Below are positions 18,737-62,161 of a DNA stretch of 64,000 bases, one piece after another (positions within the stretch are counted from its first letter, which is position 1; each line of letters begins with the position of its first letter). The DNA is taken from the NCBI GenBank assembly GCA_964538085.1, contig CAZIDF010000008.1:80466-144465 (forward strand), in the 5' to 3' direction. The notes beneath the pieces were generated by a model, which worked only from the letters and a program-made list of their open reading frames with translations, ran no database searches and was not told where the DNA came from. Position numbers and translations under genes: made by a program. Source of the DNA: an uncultured Eubacteriales bacterium. Its GTDB lineage: Bacteria; Acidobacteriota; Aminicenantia; Aminicenantales; Aminicenantaceae.

Positions 18737-18829
<93 letters not shown>

Positions 18830-18878
18830 ACCGGAGGATTCCGGTCCTCATTGTAACACTTTTACAACCGGAGTCAAC

Positions 18879-18968
18879 TGGCGGAGGGAGAGGGATTCGA
18901 ACCCCCGTCACGATTGCTCGTAAAGCGGTTTTCAAGACCGCCGCCTTCAACCACTCGGCCATCCCTCC
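18879..18968 (-). tRNA. tRNA-Ser (anticodon TGA)
   Basis: The reverse complement reads GGAGGGATGGCCGAGTGGTTGAAGGCGGCGGTCTTGAAAACCGC...GGGGGTTCGAATCCCTCTCCCTCCGCCA. It has a long variable arm and anticodon TGA. Confidence 0.85.
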
Positions 18969-22427: not shown

Positions 22428-22469
22428 AGAAAAAAAAGGCCGTGCACCCAGCTCCGGCAGGACTCCCCC

Positions 22470-22610
22470 TGCGTTATCCATGCAGTTAGCTCAGGAAAGG
22501 CTGATCTGCCGCACAAGAGACCGCTCTGCTACCGCTGCTACCTCCCGGTCCTGACGGGGTTTACAGAGAGTTCTTCGCGCAGGGCCCATACCTTCAACAC
22601 CACTTACATG
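22470..22610 (-). ncRNA. ffs: signal recognition particle RNA (4.5S/ffs); the exact ends are uncertain
   Basis: The minus-strand sequence CTCTCTGTAAACCCCGTCAGGACCGGGAGGTAGCAGCGGTAGCAGAGCGG matches E. coli 4.5S domain IV (CTCTGTTTACCAGGTCAGGTCCGGAAGGAAGCAGCCAAGGCAGA) nearly position for position. It lies in an ORF-free gap; the overlapping ORFs 22223..22489 and 22608..22817 are spurious. Confidence 0.65.
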
Positions 22611-22820
22611 AACACAGTCCAGAAAAAGCACAGCCTCGGCGGGGAATTCGATCCCACTGTAGCGGATTGTGAGTTACAGGGCACCGCTAGCTCCCCATCT
22701 AGCACGGCCAAGCTATTCATAAAAAAATGCCGTTTCAAAAATCTTTTTTTAAAATTGTCCAAAAGAATATTTTATCATAAACATAGGCTTTTTTTTATGA
22801 AATGTTCTGGGGCATAAAAC

Positions 22821-23841: not shown

Positions 23842-26442
23842 ATGAAAAAAACGACCATACTTACTACTGTATTTTTGCTTTTGGTTCTCCCCTGTTTTTT
23901 AGCCTCCCAGACCTCGCCTGAAGAATTTTTGGGGCACAGAGTGGGAGCGGATAGAAAACTGGCTGACTACGGCCAAATTCAGGATTATTTTACGAAGCTG
24001 GATTCAGAATCCAATAAAATGAATGTGTTGACCATCGGTAAATCAACGCTTGGAAAACCGATGATCTTGGCTGTCATCTCTTCTGAAGAAAACATGGCCA
24101 ACCTTGAAAAATACACGGATATAACAAAAAAGTTAAGGAATGCCCGGGGTCTCACCCCTGCGGATGCCAAGGAGCTTGCCCGGCAGGGAAAAGCTATCCT
24201 TTTGATAACATGCAGTCTGCATGCCACAGAGATCGCCGCTTCCCAGATGGCCATGGAGCTGGCCTATTTGCTCGTCACAGGCAAAACGCCTTTCGATGCG
24301 GATAAGGCATTGAACGATGTGATCGTGCTCCTCTCCCCTACCACAAATCCAGACGGCCAGCAGATGGTCACGGATTGGTACCGAAAGTATGTGGGCACAG
24401 AATTTGAGGGAGGCAGTATGCCATGGCTGTACCATCACTATGCAGGACATGACGACAACCGCGACTGGTTCATGTTCAACCTCAAAGAAACCCAGGCCGT
24501 CACTAAAGTCCTGTATCACGATTGGATCCCGCAAATCCAAATCGATGAACACCAGATGGGCTCCACAGGAGCCCGGCTTTTCGTTCCTCCTTTCATGGAC
24601 CCTCCGGTCCCGACGATCCATCCCCTTCTCTGGCGGGGGGTAGCCCTTTGCGGCACCAACATGGCCTATGACCTTCAAAAAAACGGCTACAGCGGTGTTG
24701 TCCATGGACGGAGCTACACAGGATGGTGGATCGGGGCCTGCGACGACACGACCTGGCTCCACAACACCATCGGGCTACTTTCCGAGATGGCTTCCGCCCG
24801 GATAGCGACCCCGATATACATCGATCCCACCGAACTCCCCCAGGCCTATGTCGAAAAACGCATGGAATTTCCTGATCCCTGGCCAGGCGGCTGGTGGAGA
24901 TTGAGAGACCTTGTGGATTATGAACTGACGCTATCCTTGAGCCTAGTTGAAACTGCCTATCATCACAAGGAAGATCTGCTCTTCAATTTCTACAAGATGT
25001 GCAAAGATGCGATAGAAATCCAAGAAGAAGGCCAACCTTTTGCTTTTGTCATCCCCCAGAAACAACATGACTACCCGACAGCTTTACGCATGCTGAAAAT
25101 CTTGATGATGGGCGGCGTCGAGATCCACCAGGCAAAAACGGATTTCGTAGCCGATGGCAAATTCTATCCGGCCGGATCCTTCGTGGTCCTGATGTCCCAA
25201 CCATACCGGCCCTATGCCCAGGCACTCCTCGAGAAACAAAAATACCCGGATATGCGGCAATACCCGGGAGGCCCTCCCGTCCCCCCTTATGACAACGCCG
25301 GCTGGACCTTGCCTCTTCAAATGGGCGTAAAATGCGATCAAATCGACGATTCCTTCGCAACAGAATTAGAGATGCTGGATGCCATCGAATTCCCCACAAT
25401 CCCTGCACCTGACGAATCGGCACCCTATTATGTGCTGGATTCCCGTCACAATGCCTCCCATTCGGTCGTTTTTGCCTTGATGAAAGGGAACGCCGAAATC
25501 TACCGCTCCCAGAATCCCATCGGGGGAGACAGATACAGCGCGGCCGCCGGAAGCTTTATCGTGAAAAATTCATCCGGGGTGATGAAATTGCTGCCTGCTC
25601 TGGTCCAAAAATGGCATATCCGCGCTCATTCGCTCGACGACATTTCAGGAATTGCAAAATCCAGGATCGCCAATCACCGGGTAGGTCTCTACCAATCCTG
25701 GCGAGCCAACATGGATGAAGGGTGGACCAGGTATTTATTTGACGATCTGGAAATCCCCTACACCACCATCCACAACAAGGATTTCGAAGGAGAAAAGGAC
25801 AAGAAGGTCGACCTGAAAGAAAAATTCGATGTCATCGTTTTTGCCGACGAGAGCGCCGACATCATCAAAGACGGAAGGCGAAGTCCATCTTCCCAATCCG
25901 GAAGGTATTCCCGAGGTGGCAATATGCCTCCCGAATACGAAGGCGGAATCGGCAAAGATGGGGTGGATGCGTTGAAGAAGTTTGTAGAGGACGGCGGTAT
26001 CCTTGTGACCCTCAACGGCGCCTGCGAATTAGCTTTTAAAGAATTCACAGTACCGGCTCAAGATGCATTGGAAAGGGTGAACCGGGAACAATTTTTCTGC
26101 CCCACATCCATCCTCAGGATCAAGGTAGACAACATGACTCCCATCGGGTATGGGATGCCGAAGGAAGCCAGCGCTATGTTCTCTGGAAGCTTAGCCATTC
26201 GGACAAGGGTACCCTCAGGAGAATGGGATAGGAAGGTGGTGGCCAGCTTCCCGGAGCAGGATGTGTTAATGAGCGGATGGCTGCTCGGGGAGGATGTTAT
26301 CGCGAGAAACGCCGCTGTTGTGGATATCACGCACAAAAAAGGACACATCATCCTGATCGGCATCCGCAGCCAGCACAGGGCCCAATCCCACGGCACCTAC
26401 AAATTCCTGCTCAACGCGCTGCTTTACCCCGAATCCAACTAG
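23842..26442 (+). CDS. secreted M14-family zinc carboxypeptidase with large C-terminal extension
   Basis: The start is the second ATG, preceded by GGAGGG. There is a signal peptide. The Zn-ligand motif is CSLHATE and NPDG is present; the protein is 866 aa. Confidence 0.7.
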   Translation: MKKTTILTTVFLLLVLPCFLASQTSPEEFLGHRVGADRKLADYGQIQDYFTKLDSESNKMNVLTIGKSTLGKPMILAVISSEENMANLEKYTDITKKLRNARGLTPADAKELARQGKAILLITCSLHATEIAASQMAMELAYLLVTGKTPFDADKALNDVIVLLSPTTNPDGQQMVTDWYRKYVGTEFEGGSMPWLYHHYAGHDDNRDWFMFNLKETQAVTKVLYHDWIPQIQIDEHQMGSTGARLFVPPFMDPPVPTIHPLLWRGVALCGTNMAYDLQKNGYSGVVHGRSYTGWWIGACDDTTWLHNTIGLLSEMASARIATPIYIDPTELPQAYVEKRMEFPDPWPGGWWRLRDLVDYELTLSLSLVETAYHHKEDLLFNFYKMCKDAIEIQEEGQPFAFVIPQKQHDYPTALRMLKILMMGGVEIHQAKTDFVADGKFYPAGSFVVLMSQPYRPYAQALLEKQKYPDMRQYPGGPPVPPYDNAGWTLPLQMGVKCDQIDDSFATELEMLDAIEFPTIPAPDESAPYYVLDSRHNASHSVVFALMKGNAEIYRSQNPIGGDRYSAAAGSFIVKNSSGVMKLLPALVQKWHIRAHSLDDISGIAKSRIANHRVGLYQSWRANMDEGWTRYLFDDLEIPYTTIHNKDFEGEKDKKVDLKEKFDVIVFADESADIIKDGRRSPSSQSGRYSRGGNMPPEYEGGIGKDGVDALKKFVEDGGILVTLNGACELAFKEFTVPAQDALERVNREQFFCPTSILRIKVDNMTPIGYGMPKEASAMFSGSLAIRTRVPSGEWDRKVVASFPEQDVLMSGWLLGEDVIARNAAVVDITHKKGHIILIGIRSQHRAQSHGTYKFLLNALLYPESN

Positions 26443-26443
26443 A

Positions 26444-26592
26444 GGGGAATCCCATTCGGTACCACCCTATAGCAATGTAGACCTATATCGTGTGAATGCA
26501 TGCTTCTTCGTCATTCTAAAAAGTAATCCTGAACTTCATTTTTTTCAGATAAGGATCGAAAGACATAAGGTGGGACCGAATGGGATGTCCCC
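26444..26592. repeat. long-range inverted repeat: 23-nt arms (26444..26466 and 26569..26592, 2 mismatches) separated by about 100 nt
   Basis: Arm 1 is GGGGAATCCCATTCGGTACCACC. Arm 2 is GGTGGGACCGAATGGGATGTCCCC, which is its reverse complement with 2 mismatches. It lies between the M14 stop and the arsR promoter. Confidence 0.8.
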
Positions 26593-26610
26593 CTATCTCC
26601 GCCTATCTTA

Positions 26611-44280: not shown

Positions 44281-45282
44281 CTATTCTCTTGGTCTCAATT
44301 TTAAGCTGTATATTTTACTTTCTTCCGCGCCAAAAAAATACTTATATTTTTCCCCTCCTCTCAGGAAGTCTGCGATTGAAATTTGATTAGCTATAGCATG
44401 CTTGATCGCACGATCGAAAAGATAGAATCCAGGGCTGTAAGACGCATAATCTCGATCATAGGCAATATTATAGAAATACAATATGTCTTCAAACCAAAAA
44501 TTCAACAGGGCGGCTATAAATCTATTTTCGAAATACAGCATGTTTAATTCCACCCAACTCTCGGAAGAAAAGTGATCGGTAAGAGTTTGGAAAAAATCGG
44601 ACATCTCTCGTTTCTGCCAAAATTCCCGTTTCGAGAGATTGCTCCTTTTGTGCAGAGATATGAACTCTTGGATGGCAGGCTTCAATTCCTCGGACGTTTT
44701 GATTTGCTCATACCGAATATGCCCTAATGATTCCAATTTCCGGATTTTTCTGCGAAGTTCATGTCGATTTTTTCGGCCGAGGTTCGTGACATATTCCTGG
44801 TAGGAGCCCGGCAGTCTCAAGATCGGGACACTTTCCCCCTCCTTTATTTCGCAGGTCATATTGTGTTCGTTTGCCAATCGAGGGAGGACCGACAAAGTGG
44901 GAGAAGATCCGGGAATGTTGATGAACTCTGCATGAGAATATTCGGGAATATTCCTTTGCAAATGATCCAGCAAGTCTCCATAGAACTCATCATGTTTTTC
45001 TGCATTCGAGAAAAAATCGCAGTAATCCGTCACTTCATGACTGGCAATAAATCCAAGCACATTGTTGGATTCCATCAAAGGGGCGATTCCGACAAGAGAT
45101 TCCGACCTATCTCGAAAAAATAATATTTCGAGTTCTCTATCCCGTCCAAAATTTTGCCACCAGGCATCGAACCACTGATGTGCAAGAAACGGGCTGTTCT
45201 GACCGGAACAAGATAGAAGCGCATTCCACTGCTGCCTGGTTTCGATGAACCTTTCATATCTGGCTATCCGCTCGACTTCCAT
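44281..45282 (-). CDS. Fem/CelD/BioF2-like acyl- or aminoacyl-transferase (GNAT-fold, Acetyltransf_6-like)
   Basis: It is 333 aa, and family resemblance (FemAB-like fold) is judged from length and pattern only. It lies immediately upstream of the GT4 gene on the same strand with a 5-nt gap. Confidence 0.45.
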   Translation of the reverse strand: MEVERIARYERFIETRQQWNALLSCSGQNSPFLAHQWFDAWWQNFGRDRELEILFFRDRSESLVGIAPLMESNNVLGFIASHEVTDYCDFFSNAEKHDEFYGDLLDHLQRNIPEYSHAEFINIPGSSPTLSVLPRLANEHNMTCEIKEGESVPILRLPGSYQEYVTNLGRKNRHELRRKIRKLESLGHIRYEQIKTSEELKPAIQEFISLHKRSNLSKREFWQKREMSDFFQTLTDHFSSESWVELNMLYFENRFIAALLNFWFEDILYFYNIAYDRDYASYSPGFYLFDRAIKHAIANQISIADFLRGGEKYKYFFGAEESKIYSLKLRPRE

Positions 45283-45496
45283 GAATTTTCTATTTTAATA
45301 AATTGGGGACAGGATATCCATTCACCAATTAGATTGATTTGCCCTAAGGGAAAAAATTGAGAATGTTAGCCTGGCCAACCCACTCCCACCCTGACATTAA
45401 AGGAACGACAAAGCAGCTGCTCATACAGCTTTTATTTGTCTGCCGCGAATGAGCTACGATGAAGCTGATACTGTGAAATGAATAAATTTGTCATTG

Positions 45497-45631
45497 TTAG
45501 CCTGAATCATTTTACAGGTTTTGATTGCTGTAGCGGCGAGGAGATGGCTCATGAGTTGTATTATGTATACTGCGATTGGGCCATGACGATGCCGATGCAG
45601 TGAGATTAGCCTGTAAAATGATTCAGGCTAG
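45497..45631. repeat. inverted repeat: 22-nt arms (45497..45518 and 45610..45631, 21/22 match) flanking about 91 nt
   Basis: Arm 1 is TTAGCCTGAATCATTTTACAGG; arm 2 is CCTGTAAAATGATTCAGGCTAG. Additional TGTTAGCCTG/ATTAGCCTG copies occur at 45371, 45493 and 45605. The element is intergenic. Confidence 0.85.
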
Positions 45632-57499: not shown

Positions 57500-59143
57500 T
57501 TATTCCGATATGGCCTTCATCTTCTGGATGTGTTCGGCCATGAGCTTTAGCAACTCGGGCCCTCCCGGACCCCAGCAATGGGGCTCCCCTTCGCCGTATT
57601 CCACCACGCCGCCATAGTATGGATCTTCAGTGCTTTCCAGGAATTTCTCCATGAATACGACGGCATTATTCAGATAGTAGGAATCCATGTCCCCGACATA
57701 GATATGGAGTTTCCCCTCCAATTTTTGGCCGATCTCAGCCCAGTTCTGCTCTAGGTAAAGGCGCAGGTCAAAGTGTTCCTTCCAATAGCGGGCCACATCG
57801 GGATCGATGTCTCCTGTGAGCTTGTCCCAGGCTTCTTTAGGATAGCCAACCTCCCCGACCGGTCCGTAACAGGCCATGTAGATCTCCCACTGCCCTCCTG
57901 ACCGGCAATTATCTCCCACAGCCAGTTCGTAGTGGTTTTCGTCCTTCATCATCTCCCGGACTTGACCGTCCGTGCTTCTGAGAACTGGGCGTTCTACCCG
58001 CAACCAATCATAATCTGTGTAATAGGCATTTTCGTGTTCATACATATTCACCAGATGCTGGGCCCGGAAGTCTAAAGCATCGGGACATAAAGAGAATGTG
58101 CCGCCGAAGAAATCGGGATGAAAAACCTGAAGCGCAAAGGAGATCCAGCCTCCTGTGGATCCTCCTGAGAGAACGCGTGCATAGGGCTCTCGGATGATCC
58201 GAAAATTCTCCTCGATATACGGGATCAACTCCTGCATGATAGCATCACCGTAGGGCCCTAGATTGGGAGAATTCATGGCATGGGAGTCGTCATAATAGGG
58301 GCAGGGATGCTGGAATGTCACGGCTATCATCGGAGGACATTCGTCCGATTTCCAATACTCGAAAAACTCATACCCTCTGCTGCCCCAGCGATCGTTCTCT
58401 TCTGCCTTCTCTTCGCGGAAACCATAAGGAGCGCGCAATGAAAAATGCCCTTGGATGTAGTTGACAGGGTAATATTCATCGGGATTTTCATCGTATCCCT
58501 TTGGCAACAGGATGGTCGCCCCTAGGTACATCGGCTGTCCCCAGAAATCTGAGAGCAGCTTACTCTGGAATTTTATCCGCTTGACCCATTTTGTATCCGG
58601 CTCGACTTCGATGGGAGGAATCACATGATCGCAGGTGATGGATACGGTTTGTTTCTGGGATGGATCGATATGGATTTTGTGCACATCGCTGTACATGTTT
58701 CCGGGCGATCGCAGCCAATTTTGCCCCTCCCACTGGTCGTTGTGCAGCCACACGGTGTGGCCATCGGCGCGTTCGAATTGGGTGTAGACGTTGATAAAAC
58801 CCTGGACATAGTAATCCCCGGGTGGAATGTCACGGATGCTTTGAAGGGGGAATCCGTAAGATCTCTCATCTATAACTCCTGCCTCTCCTGCTTCCAATCC
58901 CGAGAAATTTTGCCCCCAAAAAGGGATCCCGCTCGCTCGGCGCACCTGAAACCGTGGCTCACGCTGGTCTGTCTGTGCCAACATGACATACACCCGGCCA
59001 GTCAAAGGCCCGGCATGAGCATCTTCCGTAAAACTTATGGCAAATTCAAGGTTCGAAACATTCGATACGCTGGTTCCATTTTGACAGCAGACTGAAACAC
59101 AAGCAAAGACAAAAAAGATGATCAATTTTAGGTTACTTTTCAT
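57500..59143 (-). CDS. exported alpha/beta-hydrolase esterase (putative esterase / enterochelin-esterase-like family)
   Basis: There is a signal peptide. The nucleophile-elbow-like motif is LSGGSTGGW. It is 547 aa and is the first gene of the esterase-GNAT-TBDR operon. Confidence 0.55.
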   Translation of the reverse strand: MKSNLKLIIFFVFACVSVCCQNGTSVSNVSNLEFAISFTEDAHAGPLTGRVYVMLAQTDQREPRFQVRRASGIPFWGQNFSGLEAGEAGVIDERSYGFPLQSIRDIPPGDYYVQGFINVYTQFERADGHTVWLHNDQWEGQNWLRSPGNMYSDVHKIHIDPSQKQTVSITCDHVIPPIEVEPDTKWVKRIKFQSKLLSDFWGQPMYLGATILLPKGYDENPDEYYPVNYIQGHFSLRAPYGFREEKAEENDRWGSRGYEFFEYWKSDECPPMIAVTFQHPCPYYDDSHAMNSPNLGPYGDAIMQELIPYIEENFRIIREPYARVLSGGSTGGWISFALQVFHPDFFGGTFSLCPDALDFRAQHLVNMYEHENAYYTDYDWLRVERPVLRSTDGQVREMMKDENHYELAVGDNCRSGGQWEIYMACYGPVGEVGYPKEAWDKLTGDIDPDVARYWKEHFDLRLYLEQNWAEIGQKLEGKLHIYVGDMDSYYLNNAVVFMEKFLESTEDPYYGGVVEYGEGEPHCWGPGGPELLKLMAEHIQKMKAISE

Positions 59144-59203
59144 GCCTTCTCCTCTCTATCAAACATTATATTTTCTTCAATCCCGCCCTAAAAAGCAATT
59201 ACA

Positions 59204-59297
59204 ATTCGGGGACAGGATACGTTTTCACTTAATTCTGTGCTGAGATACTTGATACCTTAATCATGATATGGAATAATTCGGTACCTGTTCCCGAATT
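59204..59297. repeat. inverted repeat AATTCGGGGACAGG (59204..59217) / CCTGTTCCCGAATT (59284..59297), 13/14 match, about 66-nt spacer
   Basis: It lies in the divergent intergenic region between the esterase and cupin genes. The left arm is part of a motif shared with 45301..45325. Confidence 0.7.
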
Positions 59298-59681: not shown

Positions 59682-59776
59682 TCCCCTCTCTAGCAATTGG
59701 GGGATAAAATCCTTTGTCCTTTCAGCATGCAAAAATAGGGAAACACATATCCAGGTACCGAATTAAAAAAAAATGT

Positions 59777-59805
59777 TTGACAGAAGTTGCATTTTTTTTT
59801 ATTAT
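59777..59805 (+). promoter_or_regulatory. sigma70-like promoter TTGACA-17-TATTAT upstream of the helicase gene
   Basis: TTGACA is at 59777..59782 and TATTAT at 59800..59805. The next in-frame ATG (59816) would then be about 4-6 nt from the transcript start. Judged by eye. Confidence 0.35.
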
Positions 59806-59815
59806 GGTGAACAAA

Positions 59816-62161
59816 ATGGTGAACATACGGATCTCAGTCCGGGCTCTGGTCGAACATCTCCTCAAGAGAGGCGACCTATCGATGAGTTTCGATATTGCCG
59901 CGCGGACATCCCTATTCGCCGGCAACCACGCCCATCATAAGATCCAAAAATCCCGGCCAGAACCCTATACCGCCGAAGTACCCGTTTTTTATCGAGTCGA
60001 TAACGAACGCATCGTTCTCGACATCCAGGGACGGATCGACGGACTGTACGAACTAGCCGATTCCGTGGTGATCGAAGAAATAAAGACCACCCGAAAAGAC
60101 TTGGAAGGTTTCATAAAACAAAACAGCGAACTTCACTGGGCCCAGGTTAAAGTGTATGCTGCGATCTATGCGATCGAAAATAACCTGGATCGGATACTCG
60201 CTCAACTCACATACGGCCACATAGAAACTGGGGAGGTCAGGACCTATTTCCAGGAATACAATACAGATGAGCTCCGCATGTTTTTTTTGCATTTGCTGGA
60301 ACAATATTTCCAGTGGGTTGAAAAGATCCAAGATTGGCATGAGGAGAGGGATCGATCGATCTTCACATCAGATTTTCCCTTCGTGTCCTTCCGCAGCGGT
60401 CAACGCCAAATGATCGAAGACGTTGCCGCCATCATCGAACAGGAAGAGCAAATCATCATCCAGGCCCCAACAGGCATCGGTAAAACCGTGGCCGTCCTTT
60501 ATCCAGCCATCAAAGCTATAGCCGAAGGGCACATCCAAAAGATGTTTTACCTGACGTCGCGTACAACAGGACGCTTTATCGCTGAAAAAACTTTGATAGA
60601 GCTAAAAAAAAGCGGACTCCGCATAAAATTCGTGACATTGACCGCCAAGGAAAAGATCTGTTTCAACCCGGAAAAAAATTGCACTCCCGATGAATGTTCT
60701 TTTGCCAAGGGATATTATGACCGCTTCGTCGAAGCCCGTAAGTCCCTGTTTGACGAAGAAGCCTTCACTGCCGACAAGATCGCTGAGATTGCCCGTGTCC
60801 ACCAAATCTGTCCCTTCGAATTTTCACTCGACATGGCGCTTTGGGTGGAGTGTATCATCTGCGACCTTAACTATGTGTTCGATCCAAGGGTGTGTCTCCG
60901 ACGGTTTTTCCTGGAAAACCCAATCGATTGCACCATTCTCGTAGACGAAGCTCACAATCTCGTCGACAGGTCAAGAGAGATGTACTCCGCTAAAATCGAT
61001 AAAACAGATTTCTTGAAAATCCGGCGTCTCCTCAAGAACAAAGAATCCGAGCTCTATCGAGCAGCAGGAGAGGTCAACAGGCAAATGTCGGAAATGAAAA
61101 AAACGCTCGAAGAGGAAAATAGCGCTTGGCAGGATGAACGCCCCGAAAAACTCCTTCCCCCTCTCAGGCATCTTCTCACGAGCCTCGAACGCTGGCTATC
61201 TTCCCACCCAAGCTCCCCCCAAACCCAAGAGATGCTCGATCGCTACTTTGCGGTAAACTGGTTTCTAAGAGTCTCTGAACTTTACGATAAAAACTATGCG
61301 ACTTGCCTCGAACAAACTTATCGTAATTTCAGCACAAAACTTTATTGCATCGATCCTTCCGAACATCTCCGTGAGACTTTCGAACGGGTCAATTCATCCG
61401 TTCTTTTTTCAGCGACCATCACACCCATGTCCTACTTCGCTCAGATTTTTGGATTAAAGGATTCGGTCGAAAAACGGATTCTCCCCTCTCCTTTTCCCCA
61501 AGAAAACCTGTGTGTCCTCGTTTCTGATTCTGTTTCCACACTCTACAGACACAGGTCTCAAACAAAAAAAGCTCTGGTTCAGACCATCGGTTCTCTGGTC
61601 GAAGCCAAAAAGGGAAATTACATGGTTTATTTCCCTTCCTATGAATACCTGCAGATGGTGCATCCTCTGTATGAAGCGGCCTTTCCCCACCACAAAATCC
61701 TCATGCAGACACATGAGATGAGAGAAGACGAAAGAGTGGACTTCCTATCTAATTTCTCGGAAGAAAACGATCACAGCCTCGTGGGTTTTGTGGTGATGGG
61801 AGGTATTTTCGGGGAAGGCATCGATCTGGTCGGAGACCGGTTGACAGGAGCTGTCATCGTCGGTGTCGGATTGCCCGGAATTTCGCTGGAAAGAGAAATG
61901 ATCCGCCATCATTTCTCTGAAAACCAGCTCTCCGGTTTCGACTATGCTTATCGCTATCCAGGGCTGATCCGCGTGTTTCAAGCGGCAGGTCGGGTTATAA
62001 GAACCGAAAACGACCGTGGAACGATACTCTTGATCGATCCTCGTTATTCTCATCCCCAGTATAACGAACTGTTTCCCCAGGAATGGCTGGTCCAACCGGT
62101 ACAAAATCACGGTCAGATCCGGCAGATATTGGATGAATTTTGGGTTGAGCCAAAATCATGA
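59816..62161 (+). CDS. fusion of an N-terminal Cas4/RecB-like PD-(D/E)xK nuclease domain with an XPD/DinG-type (Rad3-like) Fe-S SF2 helicase
   Basis: Nuclease motifs are GRIDGL...VVIEEIKTT and QVKVY (QxxxY). Helicase motifs are Walker A QAPTGIGKT, a 4-Cys cluster (C-FNPEKNC-TPDEC...QICPFE), DEAH box VDEAHNL, and C-terminal helicase_C_2-like motifs. The upstream in-frame ATGs at 59714 and 59804 conflict with the predicted promoter. Confidence 0.7.
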   Translation: MVNIRISVRALVEHLLKRGDLSMSFDIAARTSLFAGNHAHHKIQKSRPEPYTAEVPVFYRVDNERIVLDIQGRIDGLYELADSVVIEEIKTTRKDLEGFIKQNSELHWAQVKVYAAIYAIENNLDRILAQLTYGHIETGEVRTYFQEYNTDELRMFFLHLLEQYFQWVEKIQDWHEERDRSIFTSDFPFVSFRSGQRQMIEDVAAIIEQEEQIIIQAPTGIGKTVAVLYPAIKAIAEGHIQKMFYLTSRTTGRFIAEKTLIELKKSGLRIKFVTLTAKEKICFNPEKNCTPDECSFAKGYYDRFVEARKSLFDEEAFTADKIAEIARVHQICPFEFSLDMALWVECIICDLNYVFDPRVCLRRFFLENPIDCTILVDEAHNLVDRSREMYSAKIDKTDFLKIRRLLKNKESELYRAAGEVNRQMSEMKKTLEEENSAWQDERPEKLLPPLRHLLTSLERWLSSHPSSPQTQEMLDRYFAVNWFLRVSELYDKNYATCLEQTYRNFSTKLYCIDPSEHLRETFERVNSSVLFSATITPMSYFAQIFGLKDSVEKRILPSPFPQENLCVLVSDSVSTLYRHRSQTKKALVQTIGSLVEAKKGNYMVYFPSYEYLQMVHPLYEAAFPHHKILMQTHEMREDERVDFLSNFSEENDHSLVGFVVMGGIFGEGIDLVGDRLTGAVIVGVGLPGISLEREMIRHHFSENQLSGFDYAYRYPGLIRVFQAAGRVIRTENDRGTILLIDPRYSHPQYNELFPQEWLVQPVQNHGQIRQILDEFWVEPKS

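Follow-up and report, generated by a model that had tools for sequence, protein, structure and literature searches.

Two short sites of related sequence lie in separate intergenic spacers of the window, by which we mean the whole 64-kb stretch of DNA analysed here. Each is located upstream of a minus-strand gene, a GNAT gene in the case of site 1 and a gene for a putative esterase in the case of site 2. Going by the names of homologues, the window comes from an Aminicenantes-like member of the Acidobacteriota. Three spacers of the 64-kb window carry members of the repeat family described below, and none of them contains an intact inverted doublet of two such members. The features discussed are as follows, "arm" being used for the single repeat unit.

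44281–45282, minus strand: GNAT gene of the Acetyltransf_6 (CelD/BcsL, Fem-like) type, downstream of site 1.
45292–45320, minus strand: predicted sigma-70-like promoter, TGGATA-17 nt-TAAAAT, of the GNAT-GT4 operon (consensus scan, 9/12 matches).
45299–45330, minus strand: site 1, lone arm (putative REP singlet), AATTGGTGAATGGATATCCTGTCCCCAATT(T) on the gene strand; profile E = 4e-7, flank rank 29.
57500–59143, minus strand: putative esterase gene, downstream of site 2.
59203–59235, minus strand: site 2, intact subfamily-1 arm, GAATTAAGTGAAAACGTATCCTGTCCCCGAATT; profile E = 7e-12, top score of the flank-only matrix.
59230–59263, minus strand: decayed subfamily-2 arm (GTATCCCGTCACC type); alignment to the arm of orthologous locus L226, score 20 over 35 columns.
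59275–59297, plus strand: mini-palindrome of 23 nt, AATTCGGTACCTGTTCCCGAATT, the "other arm" of the initial annotation; weak profile match, E = 4.4.
59732–59764, plus strand: third-subfamily arm (core ATATCCAGGTACC + GAATT); exact core match, sequence read directly.

Read directly from the window sequence, AATTGGGGACAGGATATCCATTCAC is present at 45301–45325 and AATTCGGGGACAGGATACGTTTTCAC at 59204–59229, corresponding on the gene strand to AATTGGTGAATGGATATCCTGTCCCCAATT (site 1) and GAATTAAGTGAAAACGTATCCTGTCCCCGAATT (site 2), and a window scan places an exact copy of the 12-mer GGGGACAGGATA in each, starting at 45305 and 59208 on the plus strand. The initial annotation, which had proposed these two strings as a shared motif, was correct on both, as it was on their location upstream of minus-strand genes in equal orientation. 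Its distance of 25–75 nt was roughly right, the measured values being slightly different at 19–43 nt from the ATG at 45282 (site 1) and 61–86 nt from the ATG at 59143 (site 2). The second copy had also been described as one arm of an inverted repeat, and 59204–59221 does pair with 59278–59295 (15/17, one gap).

By itself, the pairwise likeness of the two sites is not significant and lies within chance, because the 64-kb window holds 355 identical 12-mer pairs and, of its 582 self-matches, 77 rank ahead of the gapped 16/17 match between site 1 and site 2. Nor was the 12-mer GGGGACAGGATA enriched in the window when up to two mismatches were allowed (9 found vs 5.1 expected). By comparison, a profile of 36 columns, built from 38 arms of other genomes, matched the window at 59203–59235 (E = 7e-12) and secondly at 45299–45330 (E = 4e-7), with the next-best match at E = 0.41. 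The training loci of this profile had been retrieved with the window's own 17-mer, which makes the core share of its scores circular, hence a flank-only matrix was used in which the shared core was left out and 16 flank positions were scored at 127,970 window positions. The flank of site 2 ranked first (22.3 bits; next 15.6) and that of site 1 ranked 29th, both in the exact register beside the core. On this outside evidence, the two window sites are homologous members of one repeat family.

The unit of this family is an arm of ~32 nt, AATTAAGTGAAAnnGTATCCTGTCCCC(G)AATT. When one genome per species was searched for TATCCTGTCCCCGAATT, 99 stretches were obtained, ~70 being expected by chance on a rough estimate, and many of the 99 were coding-sequence coincidences. 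In the non-coding matches, the likeness reaches far past the 17-mer and shows the same extended arm, laid out as AATTGGGGACAGGATAC-nnn-TTTCACTTAATT on the left and AATTAAGTGAAA-nnn-GTATCCTGTCCCCGAATT on the right, with a variable spacer between the two arms. Eight exact 17-mers were found in the fragmentary Aminicenantes MAG CSMAG_1012 and six in a MAG labelled Eubacteriales; the latter label is probably wrong, because this MAG has an orthologous locus in common with Aminicenantes MAGs. High-GC contigs of Bryobacterales, Phenylobacterium, Beijerinckiaceae, Roseiarcus and Sumerlaeota carry the same core combined with other inner stems. Core variants of the arm include CCTGTCCCC, CCCGTCACC and CCAGGTACC, and arm variants are genome-specific, with GTGAAAACGTATCC present in the window and in binchicken_co275_143, and GTGAAAGrGTATCC in CSMAG_1012. 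In the consensus, GTAT precedes the core and the foot is AATT, GTAG at the arm being seen in a single copy (locus L011).

The family is abundant in metagenomes, where a scan with a 21-nt arm pattern, GTGAWWNNRTATCCTGTCCCC, detected at least 119 loci against ~7 expected by chance (again a rough estimate). Applied to 726 kb of the metagenome loci listed, the profile found 170 arms, most of them paired in 49 inverted doublets and the other 72 solo. In these listed loci, the two arms of a doublet range from overlapping or directly adjacent (0 nt) to 146 nt apart, inter-arm spacer sequences being unrelated from copy to copy, and ~97% of arms are extragenic (5 of 170 lie inside ORFs). The nearest gene side was an end for 76 arms and a start for 65, with a median gap of 3 nt from arm to stop codon and 52 nt from arm to start; in a smaller genome set, ends and starts numbered 18 and 19. 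No positional bias toward gene starts, on which the initial annotation had made its idea of a regulatory element depend, was therefore found in either set. The mix of tandem, convergent and divergent spacers was near background in the listed metagenome loci, with convergent spacers slightly enriched (24% vs 19%).

Behind many right arms, the outer end (TGTCCCCGAATT) recurs in incomplete, stuttered form, 2–5 times at intervals of 2–4 nt, and a T-rich tract follows some arms (L010). A tRNA 3′-end or integrase att-site was considered for the stuttered copies and rejected, these being only 2–4 nt apart with no island between them. At the gathering threshold of Rfam 15, no match was obtained at the window sites or at elements in 16 loci, and at a permissive E-value two perfect elements matched just sub-threshold generic hairpin (microRNA precursor) models. 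A full-text literature search for the motif strings gave no relevant context, with unrelated primer-type matches alone, and clustering of the ORFs around elements in 38 genome loci detected no recurrent neighbour apart from orthologous loci.

Base pairing in the doublets runs between arms, not within one arm. When both arms of 69 doublets were joined via an artificial GAAA loop and pairs were counted, 85.7% of cells were paired and changes on both sides were observed in 24 of 37 pairs. None of 500 shuffles reached the observed values, and sliding the partner by 1–3 columns reduced pairing to 34–49%. Across the 69 doublets, there is essentially no variation in 12 base pairs (GGGGACAGGATA with TATCCTGTCCCC). 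The next 3–5 pairs beyond this core covary freely (column 21/58: GC 26, CG 21, UA 15), a covariation that whole-doublet inheritance may partly explain in a set selected at no more than 12 arm-to-arm mismatches. For intact doublets, folding as single-stranded DNA into hairpins of 25–30 bp gave −29 to −40 kcal/mol (z −9 to −12). The solo arm of site 1 folds poorly (dG −3.5 kcal/mol, z −1.3), as does the segment 59200–59300 at site 2 (z −1.5), and the window copies are decayed relics which no longer fold.

A transposase gene emerged from arm pairs located 0.8–0.9 kb apart in the metagenome loci. In L136 and L124, which have one flank in common, arms bracket ~850 nt containing an ORF of 219–226 aa that begins MARLPRIVVPGCPHHVINRGNRRQ, with one inverted arm on each side of the gene. 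Arm-bracketed homologues of this protein are present in L086 (Aminicenantes CSMAG_1012) and L182, and a 44%-identical homologue in L012 (Beijerinckiaceae) is bracketed by copies of ATATCCTGTCCCC; L042 (Roseiarcus) holds a partial copy or fragment of the gene. The layout in L086, L182 and L012 is an arm, 40–165 nt, the gene, 50–70 nt and a doublet. In all, arms and a Y1 transposase gene lie physically together at four independent loci, one of them alphaproteobacterial, in several genomes from two phyla. No homologue of the arm-flanked transposase was found within the 64-kb window.

The arm-flanked protein matches Pfam Y1_Tnp (PF01797) with 50.4 bits (cut-off 23), and its best NCBIfam model is REP_Tyr_transpos (NF047646), with 59.5 bits, below the cut-off of 80. 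Its sole solved relative is the distant E. coli TnpA-REP (4ER8, E = 3.5e-4). At E ≤ 1e-10 it has ~3,300 homologues, the closest being proteins of 218–230 aa named "transposase" in Aminicenantes MAGs. The sequence motifs are NHVH, WQ and YIEQNP, then SS. Y---NP is the signature of class 2 (Quentin et al. 2018, PMC6006769), and together with NHVH, WQ and SS it agrees with that class, the assignment being ambiguous among subclasses 2.1, 2.6 and 2.7. Subclass 2.1, to which the protein is close by its motifs, is listed without REPs, and subclass 2.6 and class 3 are listed with atypical structures (Quentin et al., PMC6006769).

At site 2, 59 nt separate the intact arm from the esterase ATG (59143) downstream of it, and this arm is identical in sequence to the arm of L032. 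The decayed subfamily-2 arm is placed head-to-tail with it, GAATT being common to both, and at the same position an 88% orthologue (L226) carries a full subfamily-2 doublet with a GTATCCCGTCACC arm. The mini-palindrome is a truncated arm remnant pointing to the cupin gene (ATG 59322); it is also found beside the cupin gene in L226, and L013 and L032 have it in the same short form. Further along, the spacer that separates the cupin gene from the helicase gene holds the third-subfamily arm, shortly ahead of a canonical helicase promoter (TTGACA-17-TATTAT); the core of this arm, ATATCCAGGTACC, stands at the site 2 position in two 84% orthologues (L228 and L229). Site 2, which lies in a divergent promoter region, is a mosaic made up of the remnants of three arms; its interpretation as a simple decayed doublet was rejected, the orthologue alignment showing remnants of two or three subfamilies. 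Since lineages carry different arm subfamilies there, the esterase spacer is a turnover hot spot, in which arms are added beside older arms and are also replaced.

The lone arm at site 1 ends 17 nt ahead of the ATG of the GNAT (Acetyltransf_6) gene, and the predicted −35 hexamer TGGATA sits within it. An mRNA of the GNAT operon would be leaderless or nearly so, because no Shine-Dalgarno sequence was found ahead of the GNAT gene and its ATG (45282) follows 10 nt after the predicted −10 box. In orthologous loci, where the gene order DUF5107/TPR, DUF5916, GNAT, GT4 and PIG-L is kept, the GNAT spacer retains the block GGTrAwTGGATATCCTGTCCCC(G)AATTnnTAAAATAG, or TGGATATCCTGTCCCC(G)AATTnnTAAAATAG in arm notation, with the ATG a few bases on, and most of the other spacer sequence has diverged. 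The arm is conserved in the orthologous spacers L004–L007, L082, L231 and L232, and the block at protein identities of 79%, 67%, 64%, 62% (L232) and 60% (L231). In L231 it is kept although the spacer is 53 nt, and the genome from which L231 comes has a different arm core at the site 2 position (L229). The block is missing from L233 (56% protein identity), where the two genes abut. The outer edge of the site 1 arm coincides exactly with the end of one contig of a short-read assembly.

The site 1 singlet has been kept since before the split of lineages with 60%-identical GNAT proteins. The conserved block and the consensus match, contrasted with turnover at site 2, suggest that the arm is under selection as the −35/spacer part of the GNAT operon promoter. 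This may rescue part of the promoter idea in the initial annotation, since a predicted −35 overlaps the site 1 arm and orthologues have kept this arm, but not as the general nature of the motif.

We consider it very probable that both motifs belong to a single REP/REPIN-like (TIRtron-type) family of short palindromic repeats linked to a Y1 transposase. Among the possibilities raised by the initial annotation, the "footprint of a repeat" was the one that held, both sites being copies of a palindromic repeat that is abundant, interspersed and linked to such an enzyme. Two inverted arms around a variable spacer would form a long hairpin in single-stranded DNA, and, by analogy with the REP systems of E. 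coli and Pseudomonas, a REP-associated tyrosine (HUH/Y1) transposase would act in trans to cut such doublets and copy them. The transposase that the arms flank would itself mobilise them, and AATT may serve as the cleavage or target site. The transposase gene is itself flanked by arms, and copies would pile up between genes.

REP/REPIN-RAYT systems are defined by transposase-flanking repeats, dispersed extragenic copies, hairpin doublets and decayed singlets (PMC3116915, PMC3337134, PMC6006769). As in the systems of E. coli and Pseudomonas (Nunvar 2010; Bertels and Rainey 2011, PMC3116915; Messing 2012, 4ER8), the repeats described here are extragenic and over-represented, inverted hairpin doublets occur along with decayed singlets, the transposase gene is bracketed by its own repeats ("REPtron"), and TnpA-REP is the closest solved relative of the arm-flanked enzyme. 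They differ in that the 5′ GT[AG]G tag is missing from the arm, one arm alone makes no hairpin or palindrome, spacers are highly variable and the transposase is distant (E = 3.5e-4), with NHVH/YIEQNP instead of DHLH/YIHYNP.

A closer description is that of TIRtrons (Di Nocera et al. 2013, PMC3733652), whose tyrosine-transposase (TIRYT) genes stand between long inverted repeats that bear no relation to GTAG REPs. This type has been reported in Acidobacteria (Koribacter) and Proteobacteria; some TIR repeats have GGGGWSAS in common, and they are moderately abundant as singles, dimers and clusters, for example in Koribacter versatilis (PMC3733652). As in TIRtrons, a Y1 gene is flanked at set distances by long non-GTAG inverted repeats, and singles, dimers and clusters are dispersed (PMC3733652). 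Furthermore, part of the core that is invariant in the 69 doublets, GGGGACAG, fits GGGGWSAS; no such fit was found in subfamilies 2 and 3 (GGTGACGG and GGTACCTG). In a comparison by description and motif only, the present family differs from TIRtrons (PMC3733652) in its abundance in Aminicenantes metagenomes, in having at least three core subfamilies, and in a 12–17-nt core that is identical across phyla. We therefore class the element as one that would work like a REPIN and as a member of the GGGGWSAS kind of TIR repeat, not of the canonical GTAG REPs.

Two other Y1 systems are similar in part. The TnpA (Y1) of IS200/IS605 elements is of the same HUH/Y1 superfamily (PF01797) and shares hairpin recognition and short conserved boundary sequences, a part that AATT at both arm ends would play here; unlike IS200/IS605, the arms are dispersed without the gene, the layout is REPtron-like and the motif is Y---NP (class 2), not Y---Q. 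In Solibacter usitatus, a class 3 TnpA-Y1 occurs with ~600 atypical hairpins (Quentin et al. 2018, PMC6006769). That system, too, has an acidobacterial host and high-copy atypical secondary structures flanking the gene (PMC6006769), whereas its Y----Q motif and CnGA foot (PMC6006769) differ from the class 2 signature YIEQNP of the arm-flanked protein and from the AATT foot.

Some observations count against a REP-type reading. In the 64 kb there is no such transposase, and just three spacers carry arms, none as an intact doublet. The GT[AG]G foot is missing and a single arm makes a poor hairpin. Unrelated inter-arm spacers are unusual for a unit that replicates whole. The transposase motifs are nearest to subclasses reported as REP-less or atypical (Quentin et al., PMC6006769), and the NCBIfam REP transposase score of 59.5 is under the cut-off of 80.

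Of the alternatives, a primary role in RNA is improbable but fares best. Here the doublets would be bidirectional terminators or mRNA-stabilising hairpins at gene ends, functions that REPs have in other bacteria (PMC3733652, PMC6006769), and the association with a transposase would be incidental. The strength of the hairpins, their median position 3 nt after stop codons, the excess of convergent spacers (24% vs 19%) and the T-rich tracts after some arms (L010) agree with such a role, but a 12-bp core that is invariant across phyla is unnecessary for termination, a T-run directly after the stem is missing in most copies, the arms have a fixed layout around the transposase and no Rfam family matches. 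As a secondary effect on the host, an RNA role could be compatible with the REP-type explanation.

Slightly less credible, and likewise improbable, is a MITE, that is, a non-autonomous derivative of a DDE insertion sequence moving by cut-and-paste with the arms as its terminal inverted repeats. Like the bacterial MITEs Correia/NEMIS, ERIC and RUP, the elements are small and intergenic, have terminal inverted repeats, in this case inverted terminal arms around a short non-coding segment, and may affect nearby promoters; the stuttered outer-end copies (TGTCCCCGAATT, 2–5 times) could be excision footprints. Unlike in MITEs, however, no target-site duplication was found and the flanks form inverted, not direct, repeats, the outer AATT lying inside the inverted repeat, which reaches 3 nt further in the Phenylobacterium and Bryobacterales copies. 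The interior is not conserved among copies, there is no DDE partner (no DDE gene is recurrent near arms), and the gene bracketed by the arms is a Y1/HUH transposase.

We regard as very unlikely that the sites are operators of a transcription factor, or promoter elements of an alternative sigma factor, which co-regulate the GNAT and esterase operons. Both window copies do lie upstream of genes in equal orientation, and site 1 is partly palindromic (11/15 pairs around GGATATCC), is retained in orthologues and shares positions with a predicted −35. Across the family, however, arms face gene ends as often as starts and usually abut stop codons (median 3 nt), so the transcription-factor site or promoter element put forward by the initial annotation fails as a general property of the motif. 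Moreover, doublet halves are 0–146 nt apart, which no dimeric regulator would tolerate, and the inner positions covary between arms, as a protein-binding dyad would not require. There are very many copies, the arms go with a transposase gene, and orthologues have different cores at the site 2 position. The GNAT and esterase operons have no regulator in common, and a false lead is thereby removed. Sigma-54, sigma-32 (TTGAAA/CCCCAT-like), sigma-28, ECF and SigH promoters were also compared by eye and set aside, as spacings and key bases misfit and there is no start bias.

The chances are slimmer still for a DNA uptake sequence, raised to high copy number by biased transformation as in Neisseria and Haemophilus and often present as inverted pairs after genes. 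Such sequences would account for a short invariant core, many copies, inverted pairs near gene ends and persistence at orthologous sites, but not for a core common to unrelated phyla, covariation well past that core or the link to a transposase. In addition, the arms are nearly absent from coding sequence (5/170 in the loci listed), whereas known uptake sequences are not. Chance resemblance of two AT-rich spacers, to which the 355 identical 12-mer pairs and 77 better self-matches of the window might point, can practically be dismissed given profile E-values of 4e-7 and 7e-12, flank ranks of 1 and 29 of 127,970 and conservation in orthologues.

Returning to the REP-type family, two further claims can be made together only tentatively, and we consider the pair rather doubtful: that the site 1 singlet was domesticated as a promoter part of a leaderless GNAT-glycosyltransferase operon (retained with hardly any change at 60–79% protein identity, against turnover of site 2 at 84–88%), and that a transposase clade with a fixed DNA specificity crossed phyla. 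The 12–17-nt core and the arm-gene-doublet layout are found in both Acidobacteriota and Alphaproteobacteria, the core also in Sumerlaeota, and from this common core and layout in different phyla such a crossing would follow. REPIN-RAYT systems described so far are lineage-bound and vertically inherited, from which a cross-phylum clade of fixed specificity would differ.

Aminicenantes are an uncultured lineage that has received little study, and a REP-like repeat family is now on record for them together with its tyrosine transposase. The arm family breaks short-read assemblies, can be masked in motif searches and is a possible lineage marker. If site 1 is indeed part of the promoter, it would be a clear-cut example of a REP relic put to use in gene expression.

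The arm of the repeat family (a unit of about 32 nt) probably breaks de Bruijn assemblies, because a 31-mer identical to that at the lone arm upstream of the GNAT gene (45299-45330, minus strand) recurs elsewhere, in a left arm of locus L107. The short-read contig L001, a Logan contig from SRR8557364, stops exactly at the outer edge of this lone arm, its first base corresponding to window position 45330. Arms of the Aminicenantes type were also present in MAG SRP068000_co1_174, which is labelled Eubacteriales and was the source of the genome-scan loci L013, L015, L020, L022, L041 and L076, and two loci from Aminicenantes MAGs (L049 and L106) are orthologous to L076. The Eubacteriales label of this MAG looks wrong.

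At least two more arm subfamilies were observed, with other cores (GTATCCCGTCACC; ATATCCAGGTACC) and an unchanged overall arm design, at times in tandem with subfamily-1 arms. Arms of these further subfamilies, which may have their own transposases, lie in the following loci:
L076, 5172-5222
L086, 28-45
L098
L226, about 1370-1435
L228/L229, about 1396-1424

Next to right arms in seven loci (L010, L012, L033, L062, L068, L074 and L229), the outer end of the arm recurs in stuttered, incomplete copies 2-4 nt apart, e.g. TGTCCCCGAATT-ATT-TGTCCCCGAATT, with up to five in L012. These copies may have arisen by slippage, by recurrent insertion at AATT or as footprints of excision.

A 133-nt inverted repeat (45498-45630) has perfect 21-nt arms (TAGCCTGAATCATTTTACAGG), the outer of which overlaps the stop codon of the DUF5916 gene; a terminator-like hairpin is located at 45415-45430. 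The inverted repeat was also found in L002 (100%) and L082 (93%). In L006/L007, identity is 92% over its central ~52 nt (about 45532-45583), although the remaining spacer has diverged. This element may act as a terminator, encode a small RNA or belong to a different class of repeat. A further inverted repeat at 26440-26595, with 31-nt arms (84% complementary) that contain CGGTACC/GGTACCG-like strings and enclose a 94-nt spacer, had no match among all fetched loci. The window also encodes RNA genes:
18738-18968, minus strand, two adjacent tRNA-Ser genes (anticodons GCT and TGA)
22440-22707, minus strand, large-type bacterial SRP RNA (178 bits)

Two protein-coding genes have a -10-like box only 7-12 nt before an ATG and lack a Shine-Dalgarno sequence:
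45282-45300, start region of the GNAT gene, box TAAAAT
59778-59820, start region of the DinG/XPD-like helicase gene, box TATTAT after a perfect TTGACA

The esterase gene, unlike these two, has a strong GAGAGGAGAAGG. This organism may often use leaderless mRNAs. For the helicase ORF, the ATG at 59804 or 59815 fits better than the listed TTG start (59714), which is probably wrong.
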